A stretch of DNA of 64,000 bases from Candidatus Kerfeldbacteria bacterium (lineage in GTDB: Bacteria; Patescibacteriota; Patescibacteriia; SBBC01; CAIJZX01): assembly GCA_016193315.1 (NCBI GenBank), contig JACPSJ010000001.1, positions 599,478 to 663,477 on the forward strand, read 5' to 3'. A program made the position numbers and the translations under genes. Positions 7,063 to 43,458 of the stretch are shown in pieces (positions within the stretch are counted from its first letter, which is position 1; the number at the start of each line of letters is the position of its first letter). The notes under the pieces were generated by a model. It made no database searches. It had not been told where the DNA came from and saw only the letters and a list, made by a program, of their open reading frames with translations.

Positions 7063-7764
7063 CTAGTGAGGCGCATACTTATAGTCTTTGCCGTGTGCAT
7101 GCATTGAACCGTTTGAGAGGAACTTCAGCAATGATGCATTCCTTTCAACCATTTGTTCTTCCAACTCATTTACATGAATTAGGTACGGAGCCGTGATGCC
7201 CTGGTAGATCTTTGGCTTTCCAATTCTCTTAAATGGAATTCCGAGCTCTTCCAAATTGGGCGTCAAACGATCATCAAGCACGCAAAACACGTCGTTGATC
7301 GCCTGCTCCTTCACCAGGAGATAAATACCTTTTATCAGAACTAGTAAAAGATGCCTCCTGCGGTAGTTTCTCGCTACTATGAGTCTCGAGATTTCCGCTA
7401 CCGACGTGTCTCTAGGGATCTTGTAGTCTAAATCGAAATTGTTACTTATGGGTAGTCCGATCTCTGAACCAATAATTAACCTAGCAGTTGCTCCAAGAAC
7501 CCCGGACTTATGCCTGACAACCAAGTGGAAAGAATGGTTGTCGTACTGATCCTTTTCACGCTTGTCAGGATTTTTTTTTGCGTCTAGATAATGATACTCT
7601 TCACAGTAAACTTTGTATCTTATTCGATGTAACTCATCCAACTCCTCTACGTCTGAGGTTGTGTAAAAGGAAAAACTCTTGTAGACGCTGCGCTCCGCCA
7701 AGGCTAATTTTATCCTTCCAAGAAAGGGGGTTCGGATTAATGCTTCTAAAAAAAATGAAGGCAT
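7063..7764 (-). CDS. LuxI/FeeM-like GNAT-fold N-acyltransferase (N-acyl amino acid synthase / autoinducer synthase-like)
   Basis: 'LHRIRYKVYCEEYHYLD...DQYDNHSFHLVV' matches the R-x3-VF-x-EE-LGW...D-x-FD core shared by LuxI and FeeM/PEP-CTERM-associated N-acyl amino acid synthases. 'EISRLIVARNYRRRH' matches the conserved (S/T)RL-arginine region. Confidence 0.55.
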   Translation of the reverse strand: MPSFFLEALIRTPFLGRIKLALAERSVYKSFSFYTTSDVEELDELHRIRYKVYCEEYHYLDAKKNPDKREKDQYDNHSFHLVVRHKSGVLGATARLIIGSEIGLPISNNFDLDYKIPRDTSVAEISRLIVARNYRRRHLLLVLIKGIYLLVKEQAINDVFCVLDDRLTPNLEELGIPFKRIGKPKIYQGITAPYLIHVNELEEQMVERNASLLKFLSNGSMHAHGKDYKYAPH

Positions 7765-7766
7765 TT

Positions 7767-8444
7767 CTACTTCTTCAGGATGATGTAGGTTGTACTACCA
7801 ACCCAGAAGACTGAAAAAACGACGGAAATTAGTGGGTTCACACTAATTTCGTAAAAGACCGCCCACAGATTGAGACTTATCGCCGGGAGGCCGCCTAAGA
7901 CAACTCCCAACAAGAAAATTCGGGCGTTATTCTTCTGGAATCCACCAACAACTCTTTGTTTGTAAAACAACAATACTACGCTTGCGAAATAAAATGCTGA
8001 AACCACAAGTTGGTAGACCCCGAACATCGGGCCGGGTATCGGCCACCCGGCGATATTCGAGTTGACATTGTAGCCGCTGAAAATAGTTGATGTGAAAATA
8101 GCAACCAGGCTCAGAATGAAGGCCGGAAAATAAAGGAGTACTGCGTGTAGCTTGTCAAAAGTGAACGTTTTGTACGGGAAAAGAATAGCGAGGTGAACTA
8201 AACTTGTAACAATCACTGCTCCTGAAACAAACAAAACTTTAAGGAAGAGAGTAACCGTCGCGCTTGGGTCAACATAAGACGTGAGGCCGTTGAGAATTGC
8301 CCATGCGGCTGTACTAAACGCCAACAACGCCATCACTTTCCGAATCTCCTGTTTTTGGTGAGTGACCCAAAAGAACACCGCAAGGGCTAATTCCCCCGTG
8401 CCAACGAGGTAGGTAAGACCCAAGAGAATATTTTTCCCAATCAT
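7767..8444 (-). CDS. Stand-alone 7TM membrane module, paralog of the kinase N-terminal sensor (copy 1)
   Basis: Seven predicted TM helices and no soluble domain. It shares motifs with the HK N-terminus: 'HLAILFPYK' vs 'HFGLIFPWG', 'LLYFPAFIL' vs 'ALYFPTLLF', 'ARIFLLGVVLGG' vs 'VRYLLLGLAISA'. It ends '...TYIILKK', where the HK continues 'YAIVRHRLLD'. The ATG at 8444 makes an ATGA overlap with the copy-2 stop; the ORF extends to 8462. Confidence 0.7.
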   Translation of the reverse strand: MIGKNILLGLTYLVGTGELALAVFFWVTHQKQEIRKVMALLAFSTAAWAILNGLTSYVDPSATVTLFLKVLFVSGAVIVTSLVHLAILFPYKTFTFDKLHAVLLYFPAFILSLVAIFTSTIFSGYNVNSNIAGWPIPGPMFGVYQLVVSAFYFASVVLLFYKQRVVGGFQKNNARIFLLGVVLGGLPAISLNLWAVFYEISVNPLISVVFSVFWVGSTTYIILKK

Positions 8445-9112
8445 GGTTGTATAATGATCCATGTTACTAGCCCTAACCAGACTCCGCTCAGTACAGGAGC
8501 AATCAGGGTCGCATAACTAACTTGGAAACCAAAATTAAAAACACTGAAAATCAAACCGGGAACGCCAGGAATCAGGATTGCGCTAAGAAGTTTTTTTAAA
8601 TGACGGTGGTGCACCCCATCGCTACGTCGGATTTTTTGAATTAATAAACCGACCGAGGTAAGAAGGGCCAGCGTAAAGAAAATGATGTACAAGGAATACA
8701 AATCACCAGGAATAATCTGTCCCGTCGTATCAGGGGTAAGTTTGTACCCTTGGATAAAATCATCAGAGATGAAAAAGCTATAACTTAGCATGGCCGCGGG
8801 CAGGTAGAGAAGTATGCGGTGAAATCCGTCGAGGCGAATGGTGGGAAATGGAAAAAGTATGACAACATGCACCAGGGCAGTGATAAGAAAAAAGCTCGCA
8901 ATAAAAACCCAGGGTAACAGCAGGTCAACTAAATGGGAAGGTTCGCGGTAGGATGTAAGAGCATTCAATACGACCCATGCGCCAATGAAGAATGCAAGAA
9001 ATGCCATCACCTTCCTAATCTCCTGTTTTTGGTGAGTGACCCAAAAGAAAACTGCAAGGATTAACTCCCCTATCCCAACAAGGTACGTTGCTGTTAGCAG
9101 GATCGTTTTCAT
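8441..9112 (-). CDS. Stand-alone 7TM membrane module (copy 2)
   Basis: The N-terminal 60 aa are nearly identical to copy 1, including an 18-aa identical run 'AVFFWVTHQKQEIRKVMA'. It has 7 TM and the FP motif 'ILFPFP'. There are ATGA overlaps at both ends; the ORF extends to 9148. Confidence 0.7.
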   Translation of the reverse strand: MKTILLTATYLVGIGELILAVFFWVTHQKQEIRKVMAFLAFFIGAWVVLNALTSYREPSHLVDLLLPWVFIASFFLITALVHVVILFPFPTIRLDGFHRILLYLPAAMLSYSFFISDDFIQGYKLTPDTTGQIIPGDLYSLYIIFFTLALLTSVGLLIQKIRRSDGVHHRHLKKLLSAILIPGVPGLIFSVFNFGFQVSYATLIAPVLSGVWLGLVTWIIIQP

Positions 9113-9765
9113 TTCTTCAAAATAATGTAGCTCGTGAAGCCAAGCCAAATGGCCGAAAACAGAGAGCCGACATAGCCGATTTTACTGATGGCGACCAGGG
9201 GGTAAATGATGTCAAAAACAACCGACACGAGGAGGGACAGTCCGATACCGACTAAAATCATTTTTAGCATCCAGCGATGTTGCCCATCGCTTTTTGTAAA
9301 ACGGTAGACCAAGTTAGCAAGGGCCCAAATCCAGTAAGCAAAGAAAAAAATGAGCATGAACCAGAAATATGGGCCCGGCGAAGTCTGGTATCCTTTGATA
9401 TAGTCAATGACTCCGTTACCGCTCAAAAAAATACTAGTCCAGAAGATACCCGGGACAAAAACTGCTAACGGCCAAATAACATAAGGCAGGATTTCATTAA
9501 CCTTCTTTCTTGGTAATGGGAAGGTCCAACTGAACGGTAAAATGAAAATAGCGGTCATCAGGCCACCGAGCCAACCCATGCGCTCAGCGATGTAAAAGTT
9601 ATTTTGCATGTATCCCAAACCGTTAGAGGCAACGTAAAAGGAAATACCTAACGCAAACAACCCATACCACATGGTCGCCTGACTGCGTTGATAGCTAAAA
9701 ATCAGGTACAAGCCGAGGATGAATTCGGCCAAAGCGATAAGGAGAAGAATTATTCCAATGATCAT
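9109..9765 (-). CDS. Stand-alone 7TM membrane module (copy 3)
   Basis: 7 TM with 'FSWTFPLP' and 'WMLKMILVGIGLSL', ending '...TSYIILKK'. Its start overlaps the copy-4 stop in an ATGA. Confidence 0.7.
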   Translation of the reverse strand: MIIGIILLLIALAEFILGLYLIFSYQRSQATMWYGLFALGISFYVASNGLGYMQNNFYIAERMGWLGGLMTAIFILPFSWTFPLPRKKVNEILPYVIWPLAVFVPGIFWTSIFLSGNGVIDYIKGYQTSPGPYFWFMLIFFFAYWIWALANLVYRFTKSDGQHRWMLKMILVGIGLSLLVSVVFDIIYPLVAISKIGYVGSLFSAIWLGFTSYIILKK

Positions 9766-10424
9766 TTCTTCGCTACAATGTACGTCGAGAACCCAAAGAG
9801 CAAAGAAGCTGAGTAAATTCCGATTGGTATGCGTGGTCGGCCGGTGACTGGGATTAGGACATCAAAAATCAGTCCGGAGAGGACGGCCGCGATCAGCGCG
9901 ACCATGAACACTTTGATACTTCCCCACTGTGGACTCTGCACATACCGGAACTTCGTTACCAAATTCGCCAGCGACCATACCACGTAAACACTCACGAAGA
10001 TGGGAAAGACCCAAAAGAGCGGGCCATGAATTTCGTGCCAAAAACCATCGGCGAGAACAACATTTCGAATAAAACTTGGGTTGAAGAGTACGAGGGGAAG
10101 GAAAAATACAATTGGCAGTAGCAAGTACCACCTATCGTTTTTCGGGATTCGCTGTGAAGGAATCGGGAAGTACCAGGTGAAAAGCAACAAAAAAGAAAAC
10201 GTTGCAGCCCCGGCAAGGTATCCTAAGCGGGTCAAGAACAGGACGACTGGCGACTCTAAGTTCAGAAACAACGACCCCTGAATGATGGCGATGGCCGATA
10301 AGGCTGACAGAAATCCGGCATAATAGGTTATTGAAGGACTACGCTGGTAGCGCTGCACCATCCAGCCCGATAAAGAAAGCAGGCTGGCGGCCAGGATGAA
10401 CAGCGTGATCGTCCAAAGGTTCAT
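9762..10424 (-). CDS. Stand-alone 7TM membrane module (copy 4), first gene of the operon
   Basis: 7 TM with 'FTWYFPIP' and 'IKVFMVALIAAVLSG', ending '...STYIVAKK'. It is divergent but colinear with copies 1-3 and the HK N-terminus. Confidence 0.7.
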   Translation of the reverse strand: MNLWTITLFILAASLLSLSGWMVQRYQRSPSITYYAGFLSALSAIAIIQGSLFLNLESPVVLFLTRLGYLAGAATFSFLLLFTWYFPIPSQRIPKNDRWYLLLPIVFFLPLVLFNPSFIRNVVLADGFWHEIHGPLFWVFPIFVSVYVVWSLANLVTKFRYVQSPQWGSIKVFMVALIAAVLSGLIFDVLIPVTGRPRIPIGIYSASLLFGFSTYIVAKK

Positions 10425-13243: not shown

Positions 13244-14092
13244 CTACTGGTAGGCGAGATCCAGAGCGATGTAGTTGTCCAGGTCGCCGTAACCGGATCC
13301 AGACGTACTCACCAAGTGACGTCCGATGATTTCGTTGTGCGCCCCCCCAACGAAGTTGCTGTCGACGACTTCCACAGCCACCACTCGGCCCTGTGCATCC
13401 CACGTCACGATGTGGACCACAATTGCTGTGTGACCGTCCTTGACTTTTGACTGGATCACATCTCCGACTTGGACTTGCGACACTGGTTTTGTCATCTCGC
13501 GCCGACCACTGTTGTAGTCGTCGATGTACTTCTGGTAAGGATACAACATCCGTGGGTTACTGGGTGGGCCGCCGTAGAAAGTCTAACTCCGGTAGAGAAT
13601 CAGGTTCGCGAAGTAACGACATTGCCCACCTCTGCCGTAGAACGTCGCCAACTCCCCGTACGGACCGGACCTGGTCCATTTCTCCTTCATGTGGGTGTAG
13701 TAGCCCATGTTGGAGAAGAAGCTGGGGAATCGATCATCCGTCCAGAGTGATGAGTTGTCGCCGTAATGGTTCTTCAGCTTCGTGTACGCGGCGACATCGC
13801 TGAGCAAATACTTCCAGTCACTGACGTAGTTGCCGCCTATCTTGTTCCGCGACGAACCCGAAGCGGTATTACTCAGCGCGTAGAAGCACTCCAGTTGGAT
13901 GGCTTTCCTAGAGTCAGTAGCTAGTCGCTCCGGTACCGCCCTAGGCTTCCTGAACCCACTGGATGAATCCGGCCACACCACCGGAGCCAGCAGACGTTCT
14001 CGGCTCCGACTGCAGCTGTCCAGTAGGGCTGGACTGACAACCAGATACGCGGCGCAGGCCAGCCGCACGAACTGCCGTCGATTCAGACTCAT
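13244..14092 (-). pseudogene. Tat-signal CHAP-domain amidase/peptidase interrupted by an in-frame TAG stop
   Basis: The 13583..14092 part (Tat motif 'SLNRRQFVRLA', then '...GRGGQCRYFANLILYRS') and the 13244..13549 part ('...VQVGDVIQ...GHTAIVV...VVDSNFVGG...IGRH') are in the same frame. They are separated only by a TAG at 13583-13585. Together they align colinearly with the intact paralog at 16241..17074. TAG is a normal stop elsewhere in the window, for example at the dapF-like and hutH ends. Confidence 0.6.
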
Positions 14093-14345
14093 GGCACAAC
14101 TCCTTTCTTGGTTACGGCTGGATGCCCAAACGTGTGTGGACAGAATGCCGCGGTAGATGCTGCAGTATTTGATCACCTCTCGGTTGTAAGGAGCTGGCGA
14201 ACCGGTTGTCTCGATATGAGACAACGCAAAACCAGGCCTTGGGCCAATGGTTCTCACCAGCATGGCGAACGAAAAAACCGGAGGCCCAACTCTGAAGCTG
14301 CTCCGTAGGGAGAACTTCAGAACCAAGCCACCGGTTCTGACTGAA
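14093..14345 (-). promoter_or_regulatory. Conserved ~250-nt structured 5' leader with a terminal inverted repeat (copy A); candidate cis-regulatory RNA
   Basis: Near-identical to 17075..17360 upstream of the paralogous CHAP gene. It contains the IR 'cttcagaacc-N8-ggttctga(ct)gaag', the hairpin 'tttgccc-N15-gggcaaa' and a long-range 'cggagg/cctccg' pairing. Confidence 0.4.
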
Positions 14346-14494
14346 GTGTAGTCCTGCCTATCTGAACGTCAAGTGGACAAGTGGATATCCTAACGCAAAC
14401 GCTTGACCCGAATAAACAAATATGTTATTTTTCTGGGTTCTTTGAAGTCTGTCTACTCGCTCGTAACTTACAACCCAAACTGGAGAGGTGATCC

Positions 14495-15433
14495 TTGAGA
14501 AAGGGTTTCAAGCATCGAACACCACACGAGCAACCACGCAAAGCGCGAAAAGATTCGGTGTGGTTACGGAGATGGAAGATGTTCGCCGCCTTCGTCATCG
14601 TCGGCACCCTCGGAGGTTGGTTTGTCATGCAGATTATCGGGATACAACCGAACGTTGTGCTAGAGTCGGGTCGGCCGGCTGGTCAGGTTCCAGACCTTAC
14701 CCTCAAGACTGAAGACCTCGATGTCTTCGCGGGCCACCCGATTCTTGGGCCATTAGCGGCCAAGGTTAAGAAACATCTCGGCGAGTACGACAGTACTCGA
14801 ACGGAAACAATCCGCCATTCCGATCCTCCATTGCGAATCGACGTACTACTTCAGTATCACGAGTACCTGCGCGTCGGTCCGGATGGCAACCCGATGGAAA
14901 TGGACCTTGGCGAAAAAGAAAAGGTCAAACGCTGTCAGGCCAAAGTTCACCAGGTTCTTGAGGCGCTACACCCGGACATGGTGGGCTGGGAAGGCTCCGA
15001 TGTACCGAATGTTACGTTCGAGAACCTAGCGCGTCAGACGTACCAACAAGCCCGCGAACAAGGACAATCGGTCAGCTTCATCGCCATCCGAATGGCGCTC
15101 GAAGTGGGTGTCGAATACGACGGCACCTTGCAGTATCTGAAAGCCCATCCTGACGCCCGGGTTTACGGATACGAGGACCGGGCCTTGAACGAGTTCCAGG
15201 ATACTCTGCTGGGCTTACTCGAGAGTCCGTTTGGTGACCAAAGTTGGGGACACATCAATCAAAGACTTGGGCCAACCCGAGGCACGGTGAATCTCTGTCG
15301 GTTTATCAACCAGATGCGTGTCGAAAAGCTCCGGCACGGCGCCTTCGTCATCGGTTACATGCATGAGCCGGAAATTCTACAAAGTCTCAAGGCGCTCGGG
15401 ACTGAAACCCGAATCTACAACCTTACTCATTAA
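14495..15433 (+). CDS. Hypothetical membrane-anchored protein
   Basis: 312-aa ORF with an internal TM 'MFAAFVIVGTLGGWFVMQIIGI'. A clean intrinsic terminator follows it. No recognisable motifs. Confidence 0.5.
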   Translation: MRKGFKHRTPHEQPRKARKDSVWLRRWKMFAAFVIVGTLGGWFVMQIIGIQPNVVLESGRPAGQVPDLTLKTEDLDVFAGHPILGPLAAKVKKHLGEYDSTRTETIRHSDPPLRIDVLLQYHEYLRVGPDGNPMEMDLGEKEKVKRCQAKVHQVLEALHPDMVGWEGSDVPNVTFENLARQTYQQAREQGQSVSFIAIRMALEVGVEYDGTLQYLKAHPDARVYGYEDRALNEFQDTLLGLLESPFGDQSWGHINQRLGPTRGTVNLCRFINQMRVEKLRHGAFVIGYMHEPEILQSLKALGTETRIYNLTH

Positions 15434-15470
15434 CCGTTGCCCGGGGAAGCAGCGGCTCTTTTTTATACGA
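15434..15470 (+). terminator. Rho-independent terminator
   Basis: Stem 'ccgttgc', loop 'ccggggaa', stem 'gcagcgg' (one G-U pair), then 'ctctttttt', immediately after the stop at 15431-15433. Confidence 0.6.
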
Positions 15471-15600
15471 GGAAGATCGCGCCTCTCCTCTGGTAACAGT
15501 TGGCTACCGGGATATATGCTCACAGTGTTTTACTACTCGATCGCATGGGGCTGAAAATGCCTCAGTTTATGGATATTGGCTCGCCTATGCGTTCGGTGCA

Positions 15601-16215
15601 TCACTGCAGCTGGGCCGAGAGAATAATCTTTTCCAACACCGTCATGACCTCAGGTAAACCTTCAGTGTACATAACCTGCACCGACGACTGATGTTCGGAA
15701 AACCAATACGTATAGTTCAGATCGAAGTTCGTTGTGACTTCAAGATACCGCCATTCCTGCCCATGAATAACCTCGGTTCCTTCCCGAACGACTCGCATGC
15801 CGGGTGCCAAACTGGTTTTCTCCATATTGACAAGGTTCGCGGCGGTATCGCCCGGCTGTGTAAAGGTAATATGCGGGCTGTCGGTCGCTTGGACTGGAAA
15901 CGTCCAGGTAACTCCTCCTTCGCCGACTGACTTCATCATGTTTACGGGCATGGCGAACGTAAAACCGCCAAAGGAATAACTTTCCGTTTGACGCGCCGCA
16001 GCTACGACGGAATCCCAATTTTGTCCGGACTGAGATACGTTGGCGTTCTGATTACCATTCGTATTTTGATCGCGGCGCCAGCTCGAGATCGCAAAAAACG
16101 AAACTAAGCCAACGACGATAACCGAAATGATGACAATGATGAAGTTTTTCATAGATGAGTAACTTGTATAAATAGTAGGATGGAAAAATTCGGGAGGAAC
16201 AGAGTTATCATACAC
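15601..16215 (-). CDS. Membrane-anchored extracytoplasmic hypothetical protein with an N/Q-rich linker
   Basis: GTG start at 16215 preceded by a strong 'GGGAGGAG' SD. TM 'NFIIVIISVIVVGLVSFFAI' then a 'RRDQNTNGNQNANVSQSGQN' linker, the same architecture as 11878..13131. Confidence 0.55.
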   Translation of the reverse strand: MYDNSVPPEFFHPTIYTSYSSMKNFIIVIISVIVVGLVSFFAISSWRRDQNTNGNQNANVSQSGQNWDSVVAAARQTESYSFGGFTFAMPVNMMKSVGEGGVTWTFPVQATDSPHITFTQPGDTAANLVNMEKTSLAPGMRVVREGTEVIHGQEWRYLEVTTNFDLNYTYWFSEHQSSVQVMYTEGLPEVMTVLEKIILSAQLQ

Positions 16216-16240
16216 TGCTCCTCCCGTTGTAAGAAGAGGT

Positions 16241-17074
16241 TCAGTACCACCGGCCCTGACCGGAAAACATTTTCCAGGTGTTACCGATGGCGGTACCGCT
16301 GACGTTGTGGCGGCCGATCATCTCGTAGCCGAGATAGTTTGAATCGACCACGGTGATTCCACTTCCGTAGTTCCGGACACAAACCGCCACGTGCTGGCGA
16401 CGCCTACCGGATCCGTCGACGTAGTTGTAGAAGACCAGGTCGCAGGGTTGGGCGTTGATCGCCGGCGGGAAGGAATACTTGGACGGATCCTTCGAGCCCC
16501 AGTTCCAGGACAGCCTGTACATCCCGGCGGTCGCCCGGTAAATATCCATAGCTACGTACGAAACGCACTGGCATCCGCGGCCGATCCCACTCCGAACACC
16601 GTATGGGTCGGCACTGAGGTAACTCACCCAGTACTCGATCGTATTCTGCGGGTACGGCATGAGATTGGGCGTCGTAATCGCGCAGCAACCACAGACAGGC
16701 GGGATGTCATTCGACACACATGTCTGGTAGGTGTTAAGTGCGAATCGAAGACCGTTCCCGTTCGCATCAGCGATCTTGGACAACCAGTTCCAATTCGACT
16801 TCGTCCCGTCTCCTCCGGGCCCGTTCGGATCGTCCCCTTTGCGTAGCCAATCGCGGTTGATCGAATACCAGCACTCGTTGCGGACCCGGTAACGGCTGGA
16901 TCCGATCGACAAGGGGGATGCCCCCGGCTTTCTGATCCCGCCCGGGCCTGACGGCTCCAGGTCGGTCCCGATCAGCCGCTCCGCAACGCGACCGCAGTTT
17001 TCCAAGGCGCCGGCAAGCGACACCACGGCTGCCGTCCCGGCCAGCCGCACGAACTGCCGTCGATTCAGACTCAT
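16241..17074 (-). CDS. Tat-secreted CHAP-domain cell-wall amidase/peptidase
   Basis: Start 'MSLNRRQFVRLAGTAAVVSLAG' has a twin-arginine motif, preceded by the SD 'aaggag'. The C-terminal CHAP domain is 'GCQCVSYV...CDLVFY...HVAVCV...VVDSNYLGYEMIGRH'. The ORF track extends it to 17266 through non-native R-rich sequence. Confidence 0.75.
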   Translation of the reverse strand: MSLNRRQFVRLAGTAAVVSLAGALENCGRVAERLIGTDLEPSGPGGIRKPGASPLSIGSSRYRVRNECWYSINRDWLRKGDDPNGPGGDGTKSNWNWLSKIADANGNGLRFALNTYQTCVSNDIPPVCGCCAITTPNLMPYPQNTIEYWVSYLSADPYGVRSGIGRGCQCVSYVAMDIYRATAGMYRLSWNWGSKDPSKYSFPPAINAQPCDLVFYNYVDGSGRRRQHVAVCVRNYGSGITVVDSNYLGYEMIGRHNVSGTAIGNTWKMFSGQGRWY

Positions 17075-17360
17075 GGCACAACTCCTTTCTGTGGTTGCGG
17101 CTGGTTGCCCCTTGGATAGTGGACACGATGCCGCGGAGGTCGAACTGCCGTTTTTGACACCTTCCCATGTTGTAAGGTGCTGGCGAACCCGTTGCCTCCG
17201 TTCGAGACAACACAAAGCAAGCCTGACGCGTGGTTGGATTTGCCCAAACCACGCCCCGTTGGGCAAACGGTCCTCACCAGCATGGCGAACGCAAAAACCG
17301 GAGGCCCGACGCTGAAGTCCCTTGTGGAGAACTTCAGAACCAAGCCACCGGTTCTGAAGT
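17075..17360 (-). promoter_or_regulatory. Conserved ~250-nt structured 5' leader with a terminal inverted repeat (copy B)
   Basis: Duplicate of 14093..14345. It has the perfect IR 'cttcagaacc aagccacc ggttctgaag' at 17331-17358 and a T5 run ('ccggttttt' on the coding strand) 30 nt downstream. Confidence 0.4.
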
Positions 17361-17418
17361 TATTGTAAACCTATGTGTGAGCCGGTCAAGTGGAAAACCC
17401 AGCTGGTGACGACTTTTA

Positions 17419-17450
17419 CAGGTGCGCGGCCACCCGCCCGGGCGGGTGGC
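17419..17450 (-). terminator. Perfect 15-bp palindrome, probable U-tract-less terminator
   Basis: 'gcgcggccacccgcc-cg-ggcgggtggccgcgc' lies 27 nt downstream of the stop of 17477..18058. No flanking T-run. Confidence 0.35.
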
Positions 17451-17476
17451 CGCGCCAGAGCCATCCACAGCGCACC

Positions 17477-18058
17477 TTACATCGAACTCCGAATCGCCGA
17501 CTCGATGGCGGTCAGCGGCTGGGACTGACCACTTTCGGATTGGCGGGCGGTGACTGTGCCGTTCGCCGTTTCCAGGTGAAATTTTCCTTGAAACTCACCA
17601 ACGGTCCGATACTCGTTGTCCCAACCGGACTGGGCCTTCAGGAACATCATCACCCGTTCGCCTACGGCGTACTGCGGCTGGTCTTCCACGTCGACGACGG
17701 TCAGTCCGAATTGGCCGCCCATGGCACGGACGACTATCGGCTTGGTGGTCGATCCTTTGTACCAGCGGTCTGGCTTGATCAACCAGCGGGTGAAAACCAT
17801 GTCGTCTCCGGCCGGACCGAGGCCACGGACGGAGTTAAGCTGTTTTTCCACCACGCCACTGAGGACTGCTTCGGCTTCCTTGGCCATGATCGGAACGTCG
17901 ACCTGTTTGACCAACGGATGATAGGTTGTCACGCCGGCGTGCGGCAATTCGAAAGTCAGGAAGGCGGCGATCACCGCCACCGCCGCCAGTAAGTTCCACC
18001 GTTGTCCTTTGGCCATGGTTGGGTGATTAGCGTGCGCCATAGATGTAGCGAGTACCAT
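17477..18058 (-). CDS. Hypothetical membrane-anchored protein
   Basis: 'MAKGQRWNLLAAVAVIAAFLTF' N-terminal anchor; the start is uncertain, with candidate ATGs at 18058, 18040 and 18016. No recognisable catalytic motif. Confidence 0.5.
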   Translation of the reverse strand: MVLATSMAHANHPTMAKGQRWNLLAAVAVIAAFLTFELPHAGVTTYHPLVKQVDVPIMAKEAEAVLSGVVEKQLNSVRGLGPAGDDMVFTRWLIKPDRWYKGSTTKPIVVRAMGGQFGLTVVDVEDQPQYAVGERVMMFLKAQSGWDNEYRTVGEFQGKFHLETANGTVTARQSESGQSQPLTAIESAIRSSM

Positions 18059-18567
18059 TAATATCGTCAGCTGCCAAGTTCTTGACGGTGTTGTGCGGGA
18101 TGGCGTAGTACATGACCGCCGCTTGCACCTGAGAATGGTCTAAACGGAGCCAGTGCCCGTATTCATGTCGCCGCACCGTTCGCAGGTCGTGCCATGCCCC
18201 GCTGGTGTAGGGCGGATTGAAGTTATGGAAGTTATTGACGTAGATCTCGGCTTTGACGATATCGCCGCTGAACACATACCGGCGATACGTCTTAGCGTAA
18301 GCCAGAACATCGGACTGCTCATAGTAGTAGCCCATCTTGTTCGCCGATCCATCCTGGCTGTAGAAGTTGAACTGCGCGCCGGCGTTGTTCCAACTCCCGA
18401 TGGCGTCGCTGGCCGACGTCCGCCAGGCGTTGATCAGCAATCCGGAAGTGTTGGCGCCAACCTTCGGAAAACTCCCGCCCCACCGGTAACCGGCGTACTT
18501 GTAAGCCTGAACCGGCTGCCAGGGGAACGCCAAAAACAATGGCCAGGACGATCAAGGTAACTATCAA
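18027..18567 (-). pseudogene. Secreted metzincin-type zinc metalloprotease (HExxHxxGxxH), frameshifted at a homopolymer
   Basis: 'HEYGHWLRLDHS' metzincin motif in the 18027..18539 frame. The signal peptide 'MIVTLIVLAIV...' is in another frame (TTG at 18567). Deleting one T of the T5 run (plus-strand A5 at 18532-18536) gives the continuous 'MIVTLIVLAIVLAFPWQPVQA|YKYAGYRW' with an AxA cleavage site. Confidence 0.6.
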
Positions 18568-18632
18568 TCTCGTACTTGCGTCTCCTAACTAGCCGCTAGC
18601 CTGTCTTCGACCAAACAAAAACCGGCGGCCGA

Positions 18633-19442
18633 ATGAACCGCGTTCTACGCGGCGCCAAGCCTCCGTGTCTAGATTTAGCGTACGCCTTCCACCCCGCTCG
18701 TCAACAATACTTATCCCCCGCCGTCGCCCCTCGGCAAGCTCGGGACAGGCGACGGCGCTCCGGACAGACTTGGTCTCTAAGAACCGGCTCGAAATATGGT
18801 ACAATTCTGCCAGTGACTGCCAGCGCGCGCCTACCAGAAGCAATTCGCATCTTTCTCCTCGGCCACTTCATCCACTGGGGCGCGTTAGCGTTGGTCGACC
18901 GGATGGTGGCGAACTATCCGTCCGTCTCCGACATTCTCCTCGATCGGCTCCCCCCGCTTAAACTGTTTCTCATCGGCGAGCTGTACTTTGCCGGCCTGCT
19001 CATTTTTTACCTCTGGCACTTCTCCCGCCGCCAAAGCCAGGACTTATCGTACGGGCTGGCGGTCGTTGGGTTGTTCTACGCGCTGCGGGGGCTGTTTCTC
19101 CTTTTCTTACCCATTGGCGGGCCGCACGGCGCCATTCCACCGACCGACCGCTTCGTCCTCTGGCCCTTCCCAAGCCATGCCTACTTCCCCGGCGGCCACC
19201 TCGGGCTGATGTTCCTGCTCGGTTTTCTTCTTCGCGATCGGCAGGGGCGGCGCTGGTTCCTTATCGGCGCCGCCATCTTCGGTCTTGGTTCGCTCCTGAC
19301 GAAAGCGCATTACACTGCTGACCTTCTCGGCGGCTTGCTGCTCGGATACGGAGTATTCCTATACGGTGAGCGAGCCTTACGCCAGCGATACGCCCCGGTA
19401 ACTCCCCGCTCCCCATCGCCCGTCGGCGGCGCCAGCCAATAG
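18633..19442 (+). CDS. PAP2-like membrane phosphatase family protein (tentative)
   Basis: Multi-TM protein with 'PSHAYFPGGH' (PSGH-like) and 'TKAHYTADLLGG' (SR-x5-H-x3-D-like) motifs. The N-terminal ~60 aa of the ORF are R-rich and probably not translated, so the start is uncertain. Confidence 0.4.
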   Translation: MNRVLRGAKPPCLDLAYAFHPARQQYLSPAVAPRQARDRRRRSGQTWSLRTGSKYGTILPVTASARLPEAIRIFLLGHFIHWGALALVDRMVANYPSVSDILLDRLPPLKLFLIGELYFAGLLIFYLWHFSRRQSQDLSYGLAVVGLFYALRGLFLLFLPIGGPHGAIPPTDRFVLWPFPSHAYFPGGHLGLMFLLGFLLRDRQGRRWFLIGAAIFGLGSLLTKAHYTADLLGGLLLGYGVFLYGERALRQRYAPVTPRSPSPVGGASQ

Positions 19443-19954: not shown

Positions 19955-20141
19955 GCCTCAGTCTCCCTTTGCCCCGAACCTAACGGTTCGGGATTCTTAT
20001 CCAGCACCAAACATGCCTCCGCGCGCTGGAGCCAAGACCCACCATCGATCGTCATCCCTGGTCACCAACGACAAGCATGAAGATCGGTACACACCCATCA
20101 CAAACGCGGTGGCTGGTCCGTGCAAGCCACCGTTGTTAAAC

Positions 20142-20567
20142 CTATTGTACACCCACCCAGGACGCCGTCAAGTATTTCAGATAGGACGGTCGGTGTTGGG
20201 GCGCGAATGTGATCCGGTGGAAATCTGAGCGTCGAACCCAGATCACGATTTCGCGCTCGCGATTCTTCAACGTCTGCTCTTCAGCCACGGACACGCCAAA
20301 CGCCACGCCGACGACGTTCAGATTCGCCCCGGCGCTAAACCAGTTCCAAGCGAACAGCGGACGTTCATCAACCTGGCACTGTTCAAGACCGAGTTCTTCG
20401 TGTAGTTCACGCCGCAAGCCGTCAAGAAGATCCTCACCGGTCCGAAGACGGCCGCCGGGCAAGTCAACATGCCCCTGAGCATGACGCATCACCAGCAATC
20501 GTCCATCGCGGCGGATGACGGCCTTCGCGATGATGGTCGTGACGGGATGGATGGCCGGCGAATTCAT
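20142..20567 (-). CDS. NUDIX hydrolase
   Basis: Nudix box 'GGRLRTGEDLLDGLRRELHEELGL' (GX5EX7REUXEEXGU). Confidence 0.8.
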   Translation of the reverse strand: MNSPAIHPVTTIIAKAVIRRDGRLLVMRHAQGHVDLPGGRLRTGEDLLDGLRRELHEELGLEQCQVDERPLFAWNWFSAGANLNVVGVAFGVSVAEEQTLKNREREIVIWVRRSDFHRITFAPQHRPSYLKYLTASWVGVQ

Positions 20568-22106: not shown

Positions 22107-22346
22107 CTACCAGTTCATGAATTCGCTCGGCCCGAGGGCTACTTCGACAAGCGTTACCATGCCTCCTTTCTCCTCGCACTGATGGCAAGGCCTTTGGCGG
22201 GATGGTTCTCGTCCGTAGCCGCTACAGCTCGGACATTCGATGAACCTGACAACCGTACTCGGCAACAGTTTGGCAAAAAGTGTGGTCAGGAAAATCTGCA
22301 TTGGACTTTCACCTCCGTTGAGTTTGAAAGAACATCGCTCTCCCAT
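22107..22346 (-). CDS. Small zinc-ribbon protein (CPxC...CxxC)
   Basis: 79 aa with 'ECPSCSG' and 'CHQCEE' pairs. Confidence 0.35.
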   Translation of the reverse strand: MGERCSFKLNGGESPMQIFLTTLFAKLLPSTVVRFIECPSCSGYGREPSRQRPCHQCEEKGGMVTLVEVALGPSEFMNW

Positions 22347-23036
22347 CTCCCCACCGGCGCGGGATAGACAAACTTTGGTGGCTTGGCAGTTTGGCTTGGA
22401 AGGTTCGCCGCGCGGCGGGGAGATGGGAAAGGACGAAGGCTACGGGATCAGGATGTCCCAGGGGCCTTGGGATAGCGAGCGACCCGGCCGATGGTCGGCA
22501 GGGTCGTGAACTTGGCTCCGGACGTGGGTCTGTGAGCGGCTGAAGGTGAGCCACTGGTAGTTATGGAAAAAACCGACGCCTTTGAAGCGCTTTTTGAAAT
22601 GTAGTTGATAGAGTCTGAGAACGGCTAAGAGTTGCATCGTCAGGTGGTTATCCACTTTCTGCGCGACGGCGCTACCAAGCGACGGCGCAAACGCAAAACT
22701 ATCTTCGAACCTCCATTTTTCGGGACTTGTGAAGACCGTTTGGGTCTTGATATTCATTCTTGCGACGGCGCTATTTTCTGCGACGGCTTTATGGTTCCAA
22801 AATTGTAGCGCGAAAAATGGTGGCCGTCAAGTGTGGCTGTCGAGAAACTTACTTGATCAGGAAATAATGTTCGGTTTGCCCACCCCAAGAACAGCCATCC
22901 AACTGCCGGCGCGCTAACTATCCCCTGACCCTCGGCCTTTACAATGCCATCATTTCGTTTTATGCTATGTGCGCAAAAGTTTTTGGGTAGGTACCGAAGC
23001 GGTCACCCCGCCCCACATTCATTCAAAAGACGTCGC

Positions 23037-23122
23037 GGGCAGTTAGCGAAGTGGTCAAACGCGGCTGACTGTAAATCAGCTGGCTCCGGCCTTCGTAGGT
23101 TCGAATCCTACACTGCCCACCA
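23037..23122 (+). tRNA. tRNA-Tyr (anticodon GTA), type II with a long variable arm, CCA encoded
   Basis: Acceptor 'gggcagt'/'actgccc'; anticodon stem 'gctga/tcagc' with loop 'ctGTAaa'; 14-nt variable arm; T-arm 'gtagg TTCGAAT cctac'; discriminator A; 3' CCA. Confidence 0.85.
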
Positions 23123-25357: not shown

Positions 25358-25435
25358 GACGCGTCTCTCGCTTCCAGAGACCCTCTCACTGCGCTCAGGT
25401 GAGACGGCGACGGGCGCGGGGCCAGCATGAATTCT

Positions 25436-25667
25436 ATGCTACCACGTATCATTCTCCGTCTCGACATGAACAGTTACTTCGCTTCGGTGAAGCAGTCCCG
25501 CAGTCCTCGTTGCTACGGTCCTCGGGTGCGGGACTAATGGGATTCTCTATGTTGCCGCGTATCATATTACACCTCGACATGAACAGCTACTTTGCTTCGG
25601 TTGAACAGCCCCGCACCGCTCCCCTTCGCCAAGCTCAGGGTCGGGTGCGGGATTAGTCAAAAAATCT
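25436..25667 (+). repeat. Two extra tandem copies of the dinB 5' end (60 nt each), each followed by a GC-rich hairpin, upstream of the real dinB start
   Basis: Copy 1 starts at 25436, copy 2 at 25549, and the real gene at 25668. All encode 'MLPRIIL(R/H)LDMNSYFASV(K/E)Q'. The mini-ORFs end '...(P/G)RVRD*' inside the hairpins 'gtcccgca...tgcgggac' and 'cccgcacc...ggtgcggg'. Confidence 0.75.
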
Positions 25668-26987
25668 ATGCTGCCCCGTATCATTTTGCACCTCGACATG
25701 AACAGCTACTTCGCTTCGGTTGAACAACAAGCCAATCCTTTTCTGCGCGGTAAACCGGTCGGCGTCGTAGCCACCATGACCCCGAACGGCTGCGTCATCG
25801 CTTCATCCATCGAGGCCAAAGCCAAAGGCATCAAAACCGGCGTCCGGGTGAAAGAAGCGCGGGCCATTGATCCGAACGTCATCCTCATCCCGAATGACAG
25901 CAGCAAGTATCGCTCGTGCACCGAAGGGATTTTTCGGATATTGCGGCAATATACCGAGGACATTGAAATGTACTCGATTGACGAAGCCTTTCTCAACCTG
26001 ACCGGTTTCGTCCCGAGCTACAGCCAAGCAGAAACCATGGCCGCGGACATCCGCCAGCGCATCCAAGCCGAAGTCGGTGACTGGCTGCGCTGCTCGATGG
26101 GCATTGCGCCGACGCGTTGGTTGGCCAAGTTCGGCGGCGACACCGCGCCCAAAGGCGCCACGCTCATCGTCCATCGCGGCAACCTCCATCAGACGCTTGA
26201 CCCGCGCCCGCTGACCGACGCCTGGGGCATCGCCCACAACCTTGAACGGCGTCTGAATCTCCTCAATCTCTACTCCCTCGGTGATCTCCGCCGCTACCCG
26301 GTCATCAACCTGATGCAGGTGTTCGGCATTAATGGGTACGTCCTATGGGCTAATGTTAACGGCATTGAAATCCCTGGTTTGCGCACGCCGGAGCAACCAA
26401 AATCGATCGGCCATTCGCATGTCTTCAGCCGTAAAGCCGAATCGCTCGACTATCCGAAGGCGGTGCTGGCAAAACTCTGCGAGAAAGCTGGCCGCCGCCT
26501 CCGCCGGCTTGATCTCGAAGCCTACGGCGTGTGGCTGTCGTATGGTGTGCCGGACTGGGTGGCGGCCCGAATCGGCCGAGCTGGCGGGGGCGGCGGGAAA
26601 AAGCTGCCGTATGCACTCTATGACACCCACGATATCTTTCGCCATTGCTGGCAGATGTTGCTTGATGACTTACCGAAACGCGCGCTGCCGAACTTTTTGG
26701 CGATGGGGTTGTTTTACTTAAAACCCAGATCGCGGCAACTCCGACTCTGGAGCTCCTTAGCCCCCCCTATAGACAGAGCGACATCCCGCTCCTGGCGGAG
26801 CCTTAGCGACGACATGGAGCGGGGCCCGGCCTTGGCGCAAGCTTTGGACACACTCAACGACCAGTTTGGGGATTTTACCGTGGCGCGGGGCAGTTTCTGG
26901 GGCTTGAACGAAAAAGACGCGCCGGATCGGGTGGGGTTTCGGAAGACGGTGACCTACGATCCAGCAGCTGACCGCTACGTCTGGTGA
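25668..26987 (+). CDS. dinB: DNA polymerase IV (Y-family translesion polymerase)
   Basis: 'ILHLDMNSYFASVEQ' catalytic N-terminus, a palm 'SIDEAFLNLTG' and a little-finger/DUF4113-like C-terminus 'ALDTLNDQFGDFTVARGSF'. Confidence 0.85.
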   Translation: MLPRIILHLDMNSYFASVEQQANPFLRGKPVGVVATMTPNGCVIASSIEAKAKGIKTGVRVKEARAIDPNVILIPNDSSKYRSCTEGIFRILRQYTEDIEMYSIDEAFLNLTGFVPSYSQAETMAADIRQRIQAEVGDWLRCSMGIAPTRWLAKFGGDTAPKGATLIVHRGNLHQTLDPRPLTDAWGIAHNLERRLNLLNLYSLGDLRRYPVINLMQVFGINGYVLWANVNGIEIPGLRTPEQPKSIGHSHVFSRKAESLDYPKAVLAKLCEKAGRRLRRLDLEAYGVWLSYGVPDWVAARIGRAGGGGGKKLPYALYDTHDIFRHCWQMLLDDLPKRALPNFLAMGLFYLKPRSRQLRLWSSLAPPIDRATSRSWRSLSDDMERGPALAQALDTLNDQFGDFTVARGSFWGLNEKDAPDRVGFRKTVTYDPAADRYVW

Positions 26988-41089: not shown

Positions 41090-43255
41090 CTATGTCGCGC
41101 CGCGGCCGCGGCGCTTTCGCTTTCCGGTGGCTTGCAACACCCGATCAAGAATACCCTTTGGCTGTCCATCCTCGTCGAGCTCGATCACCTGATCGGGATC
41201 GATCAAGCTATCTTCGAGGGCTACTTCTGTCTCCTCGATCTGATACGGCTCGAGCAGCCGCTCCGGAATTTCTTTCAGAAACGGTGAGGGCGTGTTCAGA
41301 TGCATGGACATCGTGCGGTAACCCGAGGCCAGGCTGTAGGTCAGAAAAAGATACTCTTTCGCCCGCGTCACGGCCACATAGAACAAACGCCGCTCTTCTT
41401 CCAGTCCGCCATCTTCCGTCAAGGCTCGCGGATTCGGGAAATACTGCTCCGAAAGGTGCATCACAAAAACCGTGCGCCACTCCAATCCTTTGGCCTGGTG
41501 GATAGTCGTCAGGACGATTTTTTCGTCGTTCCCTTCGGCTGGCTCGCCGCCGACCAACCCGAATGATTCCTGCAATGACACTTCGGCCAGAAACTTATCC
41601 AATGAATCATACTTGCCCGCAAAGAGCGCCAGCTGCTCCAAGTCTTCCACCCGATCCGCCGCGTCCGGGTACTGATTACGAAGATAATCGCGGTAGTCAC
41701 TGTCAATGATCAAGTGGATCAGCGTTTCAGGATTGGCGGCTGGCTCGCCAATCAGGCCGGTCATGGTGCTCCGGAATGTCTGCCACCCCTTTTCGGCCCG
41801 TGGCAGAACCGACATTGTTTCGAAAACAACTTCTAGCGGATGCCGTTCTTCCGCGCCGGGCGAGTCCGCTTGCACCCGGTCGAAAATCTGGCCGGCGGTT
41901 TGCTCGCCAATGCCGACTTGCAACTTCAGAACGCGGAGAAAGGCCACCTCGTCTTTTGGGTTGGCCACGATTTTCAAATGGGCCAGCACGTCTTTGATAT
42001 GGGCCCGGTCGAAAAACCGCACGCCGCCACGGTACTCATACGGAATGTCGCGGTGGGTCAATTCGAATTCCAGCGCTTGCGAGTGGTAGGCCGCCCGAAA
42101 GAGAACGGCCACCTCGTGGAGTGGCACACCGTCATCGCGCAGCTCCAAGATTTTTTGGGCGATGAATTCCGCTTCCTGTTCGTCCGAGACGGCCGGCACC
42201 ATGGCCGGTCGGAGGCGGCCTGATCGAACGTGATGCAACTTCTTCGGGAATTGAGCGACGTTGTGTTTGATGACTTCATTCGCCACGTCGAGAATCGGCT
42301 GGGTTGAACGGTAGTTCGTCTCGAGTTTGAATGTTCGGCAGCCGGTAAAAACCTTGGGGAAATTCAGGATGTTGTCGATGTCTGCCCCACGGAATGAATA
42401 AATCGACTGGGCGTCATCGCCAACGACGAGAATATTGCCGTGCACCTCGCTCAACAGCCGAACAACCTCCGCTTGCAAGTGGTTCGTGTCTTGGTATTCA
42501 TCAACCAGGATGTAGCGAAATTGTTGGCTCAGGTGACGGCGAATATCATCGTGATCGCGGAGCAAAGTCAGGAGATGAGTCAAGAGATCGTCGAAATCCA
42601 TGGCATTGTTCCGTCGCTTGCGGTGTTCGTACTCTTCGGCCACGCGTACCAGATCAGGCATAACTTTCATGAACTCTGGCTTGGCTTCACTCACCAGTTC
42701 CTCGACCCCGAGGCCCATGTTTGCCGACAATGAAATGAGCGCGGAGATGACGCCGGTGCTTGGAAAGCGTCTTTTCTTGGGGTCGATGCCGAGCGCTTTG
42801 ACGCAGACGCTCAGTAAATCTTTGCTGTCTTCTTCATCGAGAATGGTAAAATTGTGGTCAAACCCGATTTTCGGTGCGTACTTTCGGAGCAGCAGGTTCG
42901 CCACATGGTGGAATGTTCCGCCCCAGAGTGATTTTGGGAACACGCCCAAAAGCTGCTCGACCCGAAAAAGCATTTCTTTGGCGGCCTTGTTCGTGAAAGT
43001 GACCAGCAAGATATTCTGCGGCTTGACGCCTTTTTCTACTAAGTACGCCACCCGATACACAATGGTTCGCGTCTTTCCAGAACCAGCACCGGCCAGCACC
43101 AAACACGGTCCGTCACCGTGGAGCACGACATCGAGCTGTTCCTGATTCAGTTCTTGCTGGTAGTCAACCTTGAAGACCTTTGGGTCGAAGGTCTTTTTGA
43201 TGATGTATTTCGTCGGCATCGCCCCGAGTCTACCAAGAAAAACCAAAACAAACAA
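41090..43255 (-). CDS. ATP-dependent DNA helicase, UvrD/PcrA/Rep family (SF1)
   Basis: Walker A 'AGAGSGKTRT', motif II 'ILVDEYQDTN', motif III 'VVGDDAQSIYSFRGA' and motif VI 'VAVTRAK'. Confidence 0.9.
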   Translation of the reverse strand: MFVLVFLGRLGAMPTKYIIKKTFDPKVFKVDYQQELNQEQLDVVLHGDGPCLVLAGAGSGKTRTIVYRVAYLVEKGVKPQNILLVTFTNKAAKEMLFRVEQLLGVFPKSLWGGTFHHVANLLLRKYAPKIGFDHNFTILDEEDSKDLLSVCVKALGIDPKKRRFPSTGVISALISLSANMGLGVEELVSEAKPEFMKVMPDLVRVAEEYEHRKRRNNAMDFDDLLTHLLTLLRDHDDIRRHLSQQFRYILVDEYQDTNHLQAEVVRLLSEVHGNILVVGDDAQSIYSFRGADIDNILNFPKVFTGCRTFKLETNYRSTQPILDVANEVIKHNVAQFPKKLHHVRSGRLRPAMVPAVSDEQEAEFIAQKILELRDDGVPLHEVAVLFRAAYHSQALEFELTHRDIPYEYRGGVRFFDRAHIKDVLAHLKIVANPKDEVAFLRVLKLQVGIGEQTAGQIFDRVQADSPGAEERHPLEVVFETMSVLPRAEKGWQTFRSTMTGLIGEPAANPETLIHLIIDSDYRDYLRNQYPDAADRVEDLEQLALFAGKYDSLDKFLAEVSLQESFGLVGGEPAEGNDEKIVLTTIHQAKGLEWRTVFVMHLSEQYFPNPRALTEDGGLEEERRLFYVAVTRAKEYLFLTYSLASGYRTMSMHLNTPSPFLKEIPERLLEPYQIEETEVALEDSLIDPDQVIELDEDGQPKGILDRVLQATGKRKRRGRGAT

Positions 43256-43458
43256 ACCTAAGTAACCGCGCCGCGATCATGTTTGAGTGAAGTCCCGCCC
43301 TGAGCATGTCGAAGGGCGGGATGAGCGAGTTATCGCGGCGCTCCAGACAAGCCACCGGCTTGTCTGGAGTCTTTCGGTTCCTTTTCTGATCAAGCAGAAA
43401 AGGAACAAATGAAACAATTCTCCACCTATTCGGTACTTGGATCCGGAGCAACCACACT

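Follow-up and report, generated by a model that had tools for sequence, protein, structure and literature searches.

A probable transcription-attenuation element, built of a promoter-proximal hairpin and U-run, ahead of putative wall hydrolase genes in a Kerfeldbacteria bacterium

Two paralogous genes for putative cell-wall hydrolases, here called A and B, lie on the minus strand of a 64,000-nucleotide (nt) stretch of a Candidatus Kerfeldbacteria genome (contig JACPSJ010000001.1, positions 599,478 to 663,477; hereafter the window), and upstream of them therefore means higher coordinates (Table 1). Their upstream regions align for ~300 nt outward from the start codons and are ~85% identical from the -35 box through codon 12. 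A preliminary description of this DNA had reported near-identity over ~250 nt; the similarity is real and reaches further, into a sigma70-type promoter. Identity is 63% in the promoter segment, 81% in a hairpin element that we call T1, 89% over the next 27 nt, about 70% in the middle part and 100% in a 52-nt block that comprises, in A, the Shine-Dalgarno (SD) sequence AAAGGAG (17082-17088), the ATG (17072-17074) and codons 1-12 (MSLNRRQFVRLA). The SD AAAGGAG of B is at 14100-14106, so that both leaders carry one, as had been described. Two leader segments, one of 32 nt and one of 35 nt, are found in exactly two places each within the window and in none of 100 shuffles. A coding leader was rejected, as indels of 34, 3, 2 and 1 nt between the leaders of A and B shift the frame, the conserved AUG in CCAUGCUGG has no SD, and the open reading frames (ORFs) that it opens end differently among leaders; an upstream ORF behind GGAGGUGAU was rejected as well, since a start codon is not consistently present there. 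Judged by sequence comparison, A and B share an untranslated RNA leader of ~280 nt that is real and conserved.

Nucleotide similarity between the coding regions ends after codon 12. The proteins are 29% identical, and profile comparison relates their families with an hhalign probability of 99.7%; by these measures A and B are true but old paralogues. Because the leaders of A and B resemble each other (0.85) more closely than the leader of B resembles that of its orthologue (0.76), their near-identity is best explained by recent exchange of a 5′ module between old paralogues, that is, by gene conversion. A recent segmental duplication devoid of regulatory meaning would account for a 52-nt identical block and 85% leader identity inside one genome, but it is scarcely credible: with flanking coding sequences so divergent, no whole segment was duplicated, and homologous leaders stand ahead of orthologues and of other genes on at least seven independent contigs, which already contradicts it.

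The promoter of each leader is followed closely by T1. The preliminary description had ended each leader in an inverted repeat, bulged by 2 nt in B and followed by a run of T residues. Repeat, bulge and run (T5/T6) are all present, and the repeat proves to be part of a far longer hairpin: in whole-leader folds its inner half forms the base of the 24-28 bp T1 hairpin, which U5-6 follows. The outer half (CTTCAG) sits between the -10 box and the predicted start, overlapping the last two -10 bases in B; it is probably for the most part untranscribed, with only AGAACC/GGUUCU predicted in the RNA. Transcription is predicted to start at an adenine 7 nt after the -10 box, and T1 would begin at +1/+2. 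Minimum free energy folds of the full leaders A and B include T1 (z = -3.3 and -4.6). T1 has the anatomy of an intrinsic terminator, namely a stable G+C-rich hairpin with an immediate 3′ U-tract.

The same leader blocks precede A-type orthologues from other metagenomes (loci L004, L005, L008/L006, L001 and L003; the proteins of L004, L005, L008 and L001 are 49-57% identical) and the B-type orthologue L129, whose protein is 53% identical to B. At L140 a complete leader stands ahead of an unrelated gene for a 212-residue lipoprotein. Unrelated leaders in orthologues had been named beforehand as the observation that would speak against a regulatory meaning; in this lineage the orthologues share the leader blocks. 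A metagenome scan with the T1 pattern yielded two solid new instances, L140 and L148, among 30 matches. Matches in a genome collection were mostly due to chance in G+C-rich genomes, with only L015 plausible, and a scan of viral sequences for T1 found none. Upstream of the distant hydrolase homologues L002, L009, L010, L130 and L134 the sequences are unrelated to the leader. The leader is best described as a lineage-specific, modular and apparently cis-regulatory 5′ untranslated region of Kerfeldbacteria-like bacteria of the Candidate Phyla Radiation (CPR).

A search with the core CGGTGGCTTG, allowing one mismatch, revealed further minus-strand copies ahead of an M10 peptidase gene (18611-18667) and of ssb (20099-20134), each just behind a TTGACG-16-TAnnnT promoter. 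A covariance model of T1 detects exactly four elements in the 64-kb window (66, 66, 39 and 33 bits), all on the sense strand of four consecutive transcription units (14.3-20.1 kb); scores on the antisense strand are much lower. Strength is graded, T1 being strongest, and doubled by a second hairpin (T2), ahead of the hydrolases and weakest ahead of ssb, where the hairpin is followed by CGUUUGUG, a weak U-tract. Second copies of the core also occur on contigs L001 and L005. As these copies indicate, T1 is a separate module that is reused ahead of other genes. The second promoter and T1 modules of L001 (1780-2149) and L005 (1900-1995) are located, on their respective contigs, downstream of the hydrolase operons; that of L001 continues as a full hydrolase-type leader, and the genes behind both are cut by contig ends.

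Across the T1 instances the spacing of promoter and hairpin is nearly constant. In 10 of 12, the -35 and -10 boxes agree with the consensus at 8-11 of 12 positions and are 16 nt apart, and the distance from the -10 box to the start of CGG is 11-15 nt. The hairpins of 11 instances span 13 bp (ssb) to 39 bp (L129), at -15 to -58 kcal/mol, with pairing that starts at nt 1-6 of the predicted RNA; a run of at least four U residues (U4-U7) comes right after the stem in all but the ssb instance (10/11). The 3′ arm, GCCNCCG(G), leads directly into U4-7 and drifts, whereas the 5′ arm is nearly invariant (CGGUGGCUUGG, with variants such as CAGUGGCUUGG in L001), which suggests a second constraint on the 5′ arm. 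Over 12 instances the base stem is 89% paired and includes 34 G.U cells, ~20% of all stem cells; these would be A.C mismatches on the other strand, which argues for selection on the sense RNA. In L001b a G to A change in the stem is compensated by C to U (G-C to A-U). AGAACC/GGUUCU can also form a short alternative hairpin (4-7 bp) that displays the loop GGUGGCUU. It is possible in winA and winB (leader copies A and B of the window), L129, L148, L004 and L140, is much weaker than T1, and cannot form in the M10, ssb or L008 copies.

In hydrolase-type leaders T1 is followed by a second module. Right after T1 stands a block, CCAUGCUGGUGAG, that forms a small CNCCA/UGGUG hairpin. T2 consists of a hairpin followed by GGCUUG-UUU-GUGUUG. 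A further hairpin, P3, is found at the same place in seven leaders with a stem sequence that varies by lineage (GUUGUCUC/GAGACAAC, GCCACGU/ACGUGGC, GUGUUGCUU/GAGCGACAC, GGAUAAC/GUUAUCC), and RNAalifold gives 8 pairs changed on both sides, from three sequences only. Then come a pyrimidine, boxA-like block, G[CU]NCNUUACAA (GYNCNUUACAA), and an SD-like (GGA)GGUGAU(C), which lies 4-13 nt past the block or after an inserted hairpin (L129, L001) and closes a CACC/GGUG helix, P4. P4, UGUCCAC and the true SD complete the 3′ end in this order; no start codon stands behind the SD-like GGUGAUC. The pattern G[CU][UA]CNUU[AG][CA][AU] followed within 4-13 nt by GGUGAY is present in 8 of 10 leaders; the hairpin insert widens the gap to 49 nt in L129, and in L001 an inserted hairpin likewise separates the two, their order being unchanged. 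A sequence-only model of this module detects just the copies of A and B within the window and recovers a leader outside its training set (L001 1972-2083, E = 0.004). Two pairings that the preliminary description assigned to both leaders fared less well: tttgccc...gggcaaa exists in A only (17239-17267), B having a 34-nt deletion there, and the long-range cggagg...cctccg is absent from B and unused in every predicted fold.

The leaders were compared with Rfam 15 (4227 models, among them T-box, RAT-like and ribosomal leaders). At the gathering score, the whole window contains only a tRNA (23037-23119) and ten orthologous loci match no family; sub-threshold matches inside the leaders are at chance level (E of at least 0.65). 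The class suggested by the preliminary description, the c-di-AMP riboswitch ydaO-yuaA (RF00379), finds no match up to E = 10 in the interval with both leaders (14000-17500). That riboswitch, too, is found ahead of cell-wall hydrolase genes, but it differs in size and architecture and matches neither in sequence nor in structure at any threshold, and the position of T1 at the very 5′ end leaves no room for the upstream aptamer of the usual riboswitch layout. Of the broader suggestion, a cis-regulatory RNA of riboswitch or attenuator type, the conserved cis-acting RNA and the attenuator anatomy of hairpin and U-run hold up, and the proposed riboswitch class does not. We consider the leader element to be probably a new transcription-attenuation element outside the described RNA families.

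Table 1. Features of the hydrolase leaders and related elements in the window.
Feature	Position	Strand	Description
Hydrolase A	16241..17074	minus	277 residues, intact; annotated hypothetical protein of Candidatus Kerfeldbacteria; putative divergent papain-like NlpC/P60-CHAP-type Cys-His enzyme
Hydrolase B	13244..14092	minus	Paralogue of A with one in-frame TAG ~170 codons in
Block identical in A and B	17039-17090 = 14057-14108	minus	52 nt, 100%; SD, ATG, first 36 nt of coding sequence
Promoter of A	17362..17389	minus	TTGACC-16 nt-TACAAT; 10/12 to sigma70 consensus
Promoter of B	14345..14372	minus	TTGACG-16-TACACT
T1 of leader A	17288..17356	minus	24-bp hairpin AGAACCGGUGGCUUGG...GGGCCUCCGGUU, then U5; -35 kcal/mol; T1 model 65.9 bits, E 1e-16
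T1 of leader B	14268..14339	minus	28-bp hairpin and U6; -39.5 kcal/mol; T1 model 66.4 bits
Inverted repeat, copy A	17332..17359	minus	CTTCAGAACC-N8-GGTTCTGAAG; perfect 10-bp arms
Inverted repeat, copy B	14315-14346	minus	2-nt bulge
Conserved block of A	17269..17285	minus	CCATGCTGGTGAGGACC; small hairpin CNCCA-UGC-UGGUG; common to winB, L129, L148, L001b
Copy-A-specific hairpins	17228..17267	minus	tttgccc..gggcaaa / gcgtgg..ccacgc; region of the 34-nt deletion in B
T2 tail of A	17208..17223	minus	GGCTTGCTTTGTGTTG; U/G-rich tract behind hairpin, kept in all orthologous leaders
P3 hairpin of A	17191..17211	minus	GUUGUCUC-GAACG-GAGGCAAC
BoxA-like block of A and P4	17158..17180	minus	GCACCTTACAA; P4 hairpin CACCUU...AAGGUG ending in SD-like GGUGUC
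Module 2 of leader B	14167..14252	minus	T2 at 14222-14252
P3 of leader B	14205-14225	minus	GUUGUCUC-AUAUC-GAGACAAC
BoxA-like block of leader B	14184-14194	minus	GCTCCTTACAA
SD-like sequence of leader B	14171-14181	minus	GAGAGGTGATC
Promoter and T1 ahead of M10 peptidase	18611..18704	minus	TTGACG-16-TACGCT, core CGGAGGCUUGG, 20-bp hairpin and U5; 38.7 bits, E 1e-8
Promoter and T1 ahead of ssb	20096..20171	minus	TTGACG-16-TACAAT, core CGGUGGCUUGC, 13-bp hairpin; 32.7 bits, E 7e-7
Candidate partner hairpin	22336..22435	minus	Intergenic; -58.7 kcal/mol, z = -6.1

We tentatively favour a mechanism in which a constitutive promoter and a promoter-proximal intrinsic terminator are combined with regulated read-through, through a factor that recognises the 5′ arm of T1. 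A near-consensus sigma70-type promoter, TTGAC[ACG]-16-TAnnnT, would start the transcript at the first base or bases of T1; most transcripts would stop there as ~65-nt RNAs, and expression of the downstream gene would need conditional read-through. As nothing precedes T1, the target of regulation would have to be either the polymerase or T1 itself, whose invariant 5′ arm could serve as the handle for a trans-acting factor, protein or RNA, that blocks closure of the hairpin on the nascent RNA. The second module, confined to the hydrolase leaders, comprises the weaker terminator-like T2, P3, the boxA-like block and the SD-like GGUGAUC of P4 ahead of the true SD. Its probable contribution is a gene-specific layer of control, over elongation, translation or stability, for hydrolases that are potentially lethal.

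Several points weigh against this reading. The promoter matches, hairpins, U-runs, modularity, conservation in orthologues and absence from Rfam are observed, but the start site and termination at T1 and T2 are predictions, and we infer both the existence and the nature of the read-through factor, for which no candidate antiterminator protein was found in the window. A terminator without an upstream sensor is unusual. The poor U-tract at ssb raises the possibility that the role shared by all T1 copies is protection of the 5′ end or binding of a protein. The sample is small: the ~11 solid instances all come from organisms closely related to one another, and L015 (Parcubacteria) and L146, whose promoters match poorly, are doubtful, being perhaps ordinary terminators or chance matches. 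Finally, covariation in T1 is no better than in shuffles, 101-137 of 500 of which reach the observed pairing and covariation values, a statistic that is uninformative here, given a 5′ arm that hardly varies and a 3′ arm that drifts.

The main rival, which we consider unlikely, is that T1 is a 5′-terminal protective or processing hairpin, shielding the 5′ end from decay of the RppH, RNase J or RNase E type, or an RNase III site, and that the U-run exists partly to pair with the A-rich start. The fixed distance of 11-15 nt from the -10 box, the start of pairing at nt 1-6, the pairing of the 5′ flank AGAA with the U-run in most instances and the short ssb hairpin that has no good U-tract are all in its favour. 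So is the fact that known 5′ stabilisers, the ompA, aprE and ermC leaders, depend on a hairpin placed no more than a few nt from the 5′ end; these share with T1 the fixed promoter distance but have neither a conserved sequence nor a U-run. Protection would leave unexplained the invariant 5′-arm sequence and the second hairpin with its U/G tract (T2) in hydrolase leaders. A U-run of at least 4 is kept even where the 5′ flank cannot pair (flank GAGUA in L004), and U5-6 behind a hairpin of -35 to -58 kcal/mol would be expected to stop RNA polymerase in any case. Very unlikely, in our view, is the alternative raised in the preliminary description, that a dimeric repressor binds the inverted repeat as a DNA operator, which overlaps the transcription start. 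In copy A its perfect 10-bp arms do straddle the predicted +1, the window has a lexA gene and the core motif stands ahead of ssb. However, ahead of M10 and ssb and in relatives only 4-7 bp of the arms remain, or none, whereas the asymmetric spacer GGTGGCTT never varies; the many G.U pairs of the stem and the far higher model scores on the sense strand likewise indicate an RNA element. An SOS box in particular, suggested by the LexA, DinB-like polymerase and UvrD genes of the window and by the resemblance of GAAC/GTTC arms to SOS half-sites, was rejected, as the arms are not conserved and the lexA promoter region contains neither T1 nor the core motif.

Two further rivals concern what might act on the leader. 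That module 2 is a ligand- or protein-sensing, riboswitch-like element, in which the CUCCUU boxA-like block is an anti-SD, GGAGGUGAU an anti-anti-SD and the SD the third partner, or else a boxA site for NusB/NusE, appears improbable. The preserved spacing of block and GGUGAY speaks for it, as do a genuine ribosome-binding site at 22299-22333 made of the same motif pair and a pairing of CAGCNCCUU with AAGGAGUUG in RNAalifold, with one compensated pair. The block also resembles the boxA consensus GYTCTTTAANA, described with a suhB boxA 6 nt from its SD (PMC5725501): L133 matches exactly and L004 at 10 of 11 positions, while GCACCTTACAA (A) and GCTCCTTACAA (B) have 2-3 mismatches each to a consensus that may not be the organism's own. 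Against it, Rfam offers no match, the motif was defined post hoc, and sequestration of the true SD by the block was rejected, the anti-SD:SD duplexes being no better than shuffled controls in 7 of 8 leaders. The block would lie ~115-175 nt downstream of the predicted start, behind T1 and T2, instead of upstream of them as a boxA would have to be, and so could not load factors in time for their read-through. Quite improbable as well is control by an antisense RNA, in which the loop of a trans-encoded RNA pairs with the T1 5′ arm as displayed in the loop of the transient AGAACC-GGUGGCUU-GGUUCU hairpin and blocks formation of the terminator. The candidate partner hairpin has a 13-nt apical loop, GCCAAGCCACCAA (22375-22387), containing CCAAGCCACC, the exact 10-nt complement of the T1-arm sequence GGUGGCUUGG; a second CCAAGCC lies 6 nt upstream. 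Duplexes of the loop with the four T1 arms reach -18 to -22 kcal/mol, whereas shuffled loops give about -9 +/- 2.6, with no more than 0.05% of them as good, and the hairpin lies downstream of a same-strand promoter, TTGACG-17-TACAAT. The first 20 nt of several leader transcripts can fold into a small hairpin with GGUGGCUU as its loop, inviting a kissing interaction, and this loop is invariant while the short stem varies (GAACC/GGUUC, GAAUC/GGUUC, GUACC/GGUAC, AACC/GGUU). Yet the partner comes from just one locus of one genome, a coding sequence at 41134 contains another 10-nt complement that is due to chance (raw chance of such a match ~0.1), a terminator-like site (22576-22590) stands between promoter and partner hairpin, and M10 and ssb have no short alternative hairpin. 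The reverse direction is a variant, with terminated T1 RNAs acting as multicopy small RNAs on the 22336-22435 target. Were the antisense proposal true, a T1 regulon of wall hydrolases, a secreted metalloprotease, SSB and lipoproteins, stopped at ~65 nt and released when the trans-encoded loop kisses the T1 arm, would amount to a global switch in which an RNA acts as the antiterminator at intrinsic terminators, in a bacterium that has very few transcription factors. As a separate observation, the octamer GCCGTCGC occurs four times at 22660-22795 (minus), in two pairs 18 and 16 nt apart, just downstream of the TTGACG-17-TACAAT promoter (22830..22802); the copies lie in and before a doubtful ORF of 105 residues, which also holds the terminator-like site.

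The arrangement that we favour has partial counterparts among known systems. BglG/SacY/LicT leaders with a ribonucleic antiterminator (RAT) and ANTAR leaders likewise place an intrinsic terminator in the 5′ leader, with a 5′ arm that overlaps a small hairpin with a conserved loop, and reuse the element across the genes of a regulon. Here, in contrast, the terminator would start at +1/+2 with no sequence upstream, the loop GGUGGCUU does not match the RAT sequence or the dual hexaloop of ANTAR targets, neither CAT/PRD nor ANTAR proteins were seen, and the alternative hairpin is absent from the M10 and ssb copies. Antitermination of the Q or AlpA type (lambda PR′-tR′; Pseudomonas aeruginosa alpBCDE, PMC7969949) resembles it in having a strong promoter and a close terminator that gate lysis or wall-hydrolase genes, with a short terminated RNA as the default, which here is predicted. 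Loading of Q and AlpA depends on a sigma-dependent pause and on DNA sites within or close to the promoter, whereas the conserved element here is a transcribed hairpin arm, the initial transcribed region has no conserved -10-like pause element, and the locus has no phage context. Countertranscript attenuation in pT181 and pIP501 is comparable in the speculative antisense reading only, in that loop-loop pairing with an antisense RNA decides whether a terminator forms; the plasmid RNAs are cis-encoded and induce termination, while the RNA here would be trans-encoded, prevent termination and serve several genes. The boxA/Nus sites of rrn leaders and the suhB 5′ untranslated region also have a GYUCYUUA-type pyrimidine block a few nt upstream of an SD-like sequence, but the block here is one base shorter (UUACAA as opposed to UUUAACAA), lies downstream of the terminators, and its adjacent SD-like sequence has no start codon. 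The core CGGTGGCTTG resembles the ops element (CGGTAGCGTG, 8/10), which makes an ops/RfaH-like DNA element a possible lead; no NusG paralogue was seen in the window.

The products of A and B represent two families. The A type is a rare one, found as 10 clusters in a set of 5.8 billion proteins; the B type has 20 clusters. QC, H and DSN motifs are invariant in both. The CHAP assignment made in the preliminary description falls below Pfam thresholds: protein A has no match to PF05257 even at E <=10, the C-terminal fragment of B scores 14.8 bits where the cut-off is 26, and some relatives carry weak precomputed matches. The hydrolase profile has weak matches to the CHAP domain of PcsB (E 0.008) and to Spr. 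An AlphaFold model has a predicted local distance difference test score (pLDDT) of 67, and its best Foldseek matches are CHAP, NlpC/P60 and phytochelatin-synthase folds, all with E above 0.04 and none significant. Papain-like wall hydrolase is a reasonable label on this evidence from sequences and a model; CHAP and Tat are plausible ones. As for Tat secretion, also proposed, where the motif sought is S/T-R-R-x-F-L-K ahead of a hydrophobic region, the N-terminus MSLNRRQFVRLAG... does have RRxFV, which is the same in A and B since it falls inside the 36-nt shared coding block; beyond this motif within the first 12 residues nothing else underlies the label, no NCBIfam model matched, and most orthologues have Sec or lipoprotein signals. 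A conserved single-pass membrane partner is encoded downstream of each hydrolase. In hydrolase B the TAG (13583-13585, minus) splits the gene just past the putative catalytic Cys motif (GGQCRYFANLILYRS*), and the NCBI annotation covers the first 169 residues only. Orthologues of B are intact, and the leader of B is nonetheless fully preserved.

Other features of the window were recorded. The M10 (matrixin) peptidase ORF (18027-18567, minus) has no signal peptide, and a signal-peptide-like ORF (MIVTLIVLAIVFGVPLAAG...) starts at 18567 in another frame, an arrangement that points to a frameshift, a pseudogene or misassembly. A perfect palindrome, CCAGACAAGCC-GGT-GGCTTGTCTGG (43336-43360, minus), includes CCGGTGGCTTG and lies ~80 nt upstream of a UvrD-like helicase gene (41090..43255); it has no U-run. 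The hydrolase operons adjoin four tandem HisKA_7TM-only paralogues, a FeeM-like N-acyl amino acid synthase, ThiF and a 7TM-GAF histidine kinase of 950 residues (3467-10424, minus), which together may form a signalling locus. Parts of this neighbourhood recur in the relatives L003 and L006, both with HisKA_7TM paralogues and L003 also with the FeeM-like synthase. Genes for a LexA repressor (47079-47699), a Mu Gam-like protein (30089-30667) and a second Y-family polymerase fragment (48272-48775) show, by their predicted products, an SOS-type system in a CPR genome. At 25409-25726 (plus), three tandem partial copies of the 5′ end of a DinB-like polymerase gene (25668..26987), each with the start-codon region, are spaced 113 and 119 nt apart and are 63-85% identical. 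An ORF of 2029 residues with internal repeats of 276- and 546-nt period runs to the window edge (57884-63973, plus).

To our knowledge, almost nothing is known of gene regulation in CPR bacteria (Patescibacteria). The genomes of these organisms are tiny, their regulators are few, and their way of life seems to depend on attachment to host cells or attack on them. The combination of absence from Rfam and an invariant arm provides a concrete handle for finding the factor that would read T1. If the termination reading is true, abundant ~65-nt RNAs ending at the U-run of T1 should be found in groundwater metatranscriptomes. A cassette of promoter and terminator ahead of secreted wall hydrolases, a protease and SSB would then be a compact switch for a set of potentially self-destructive or host-directed functions.

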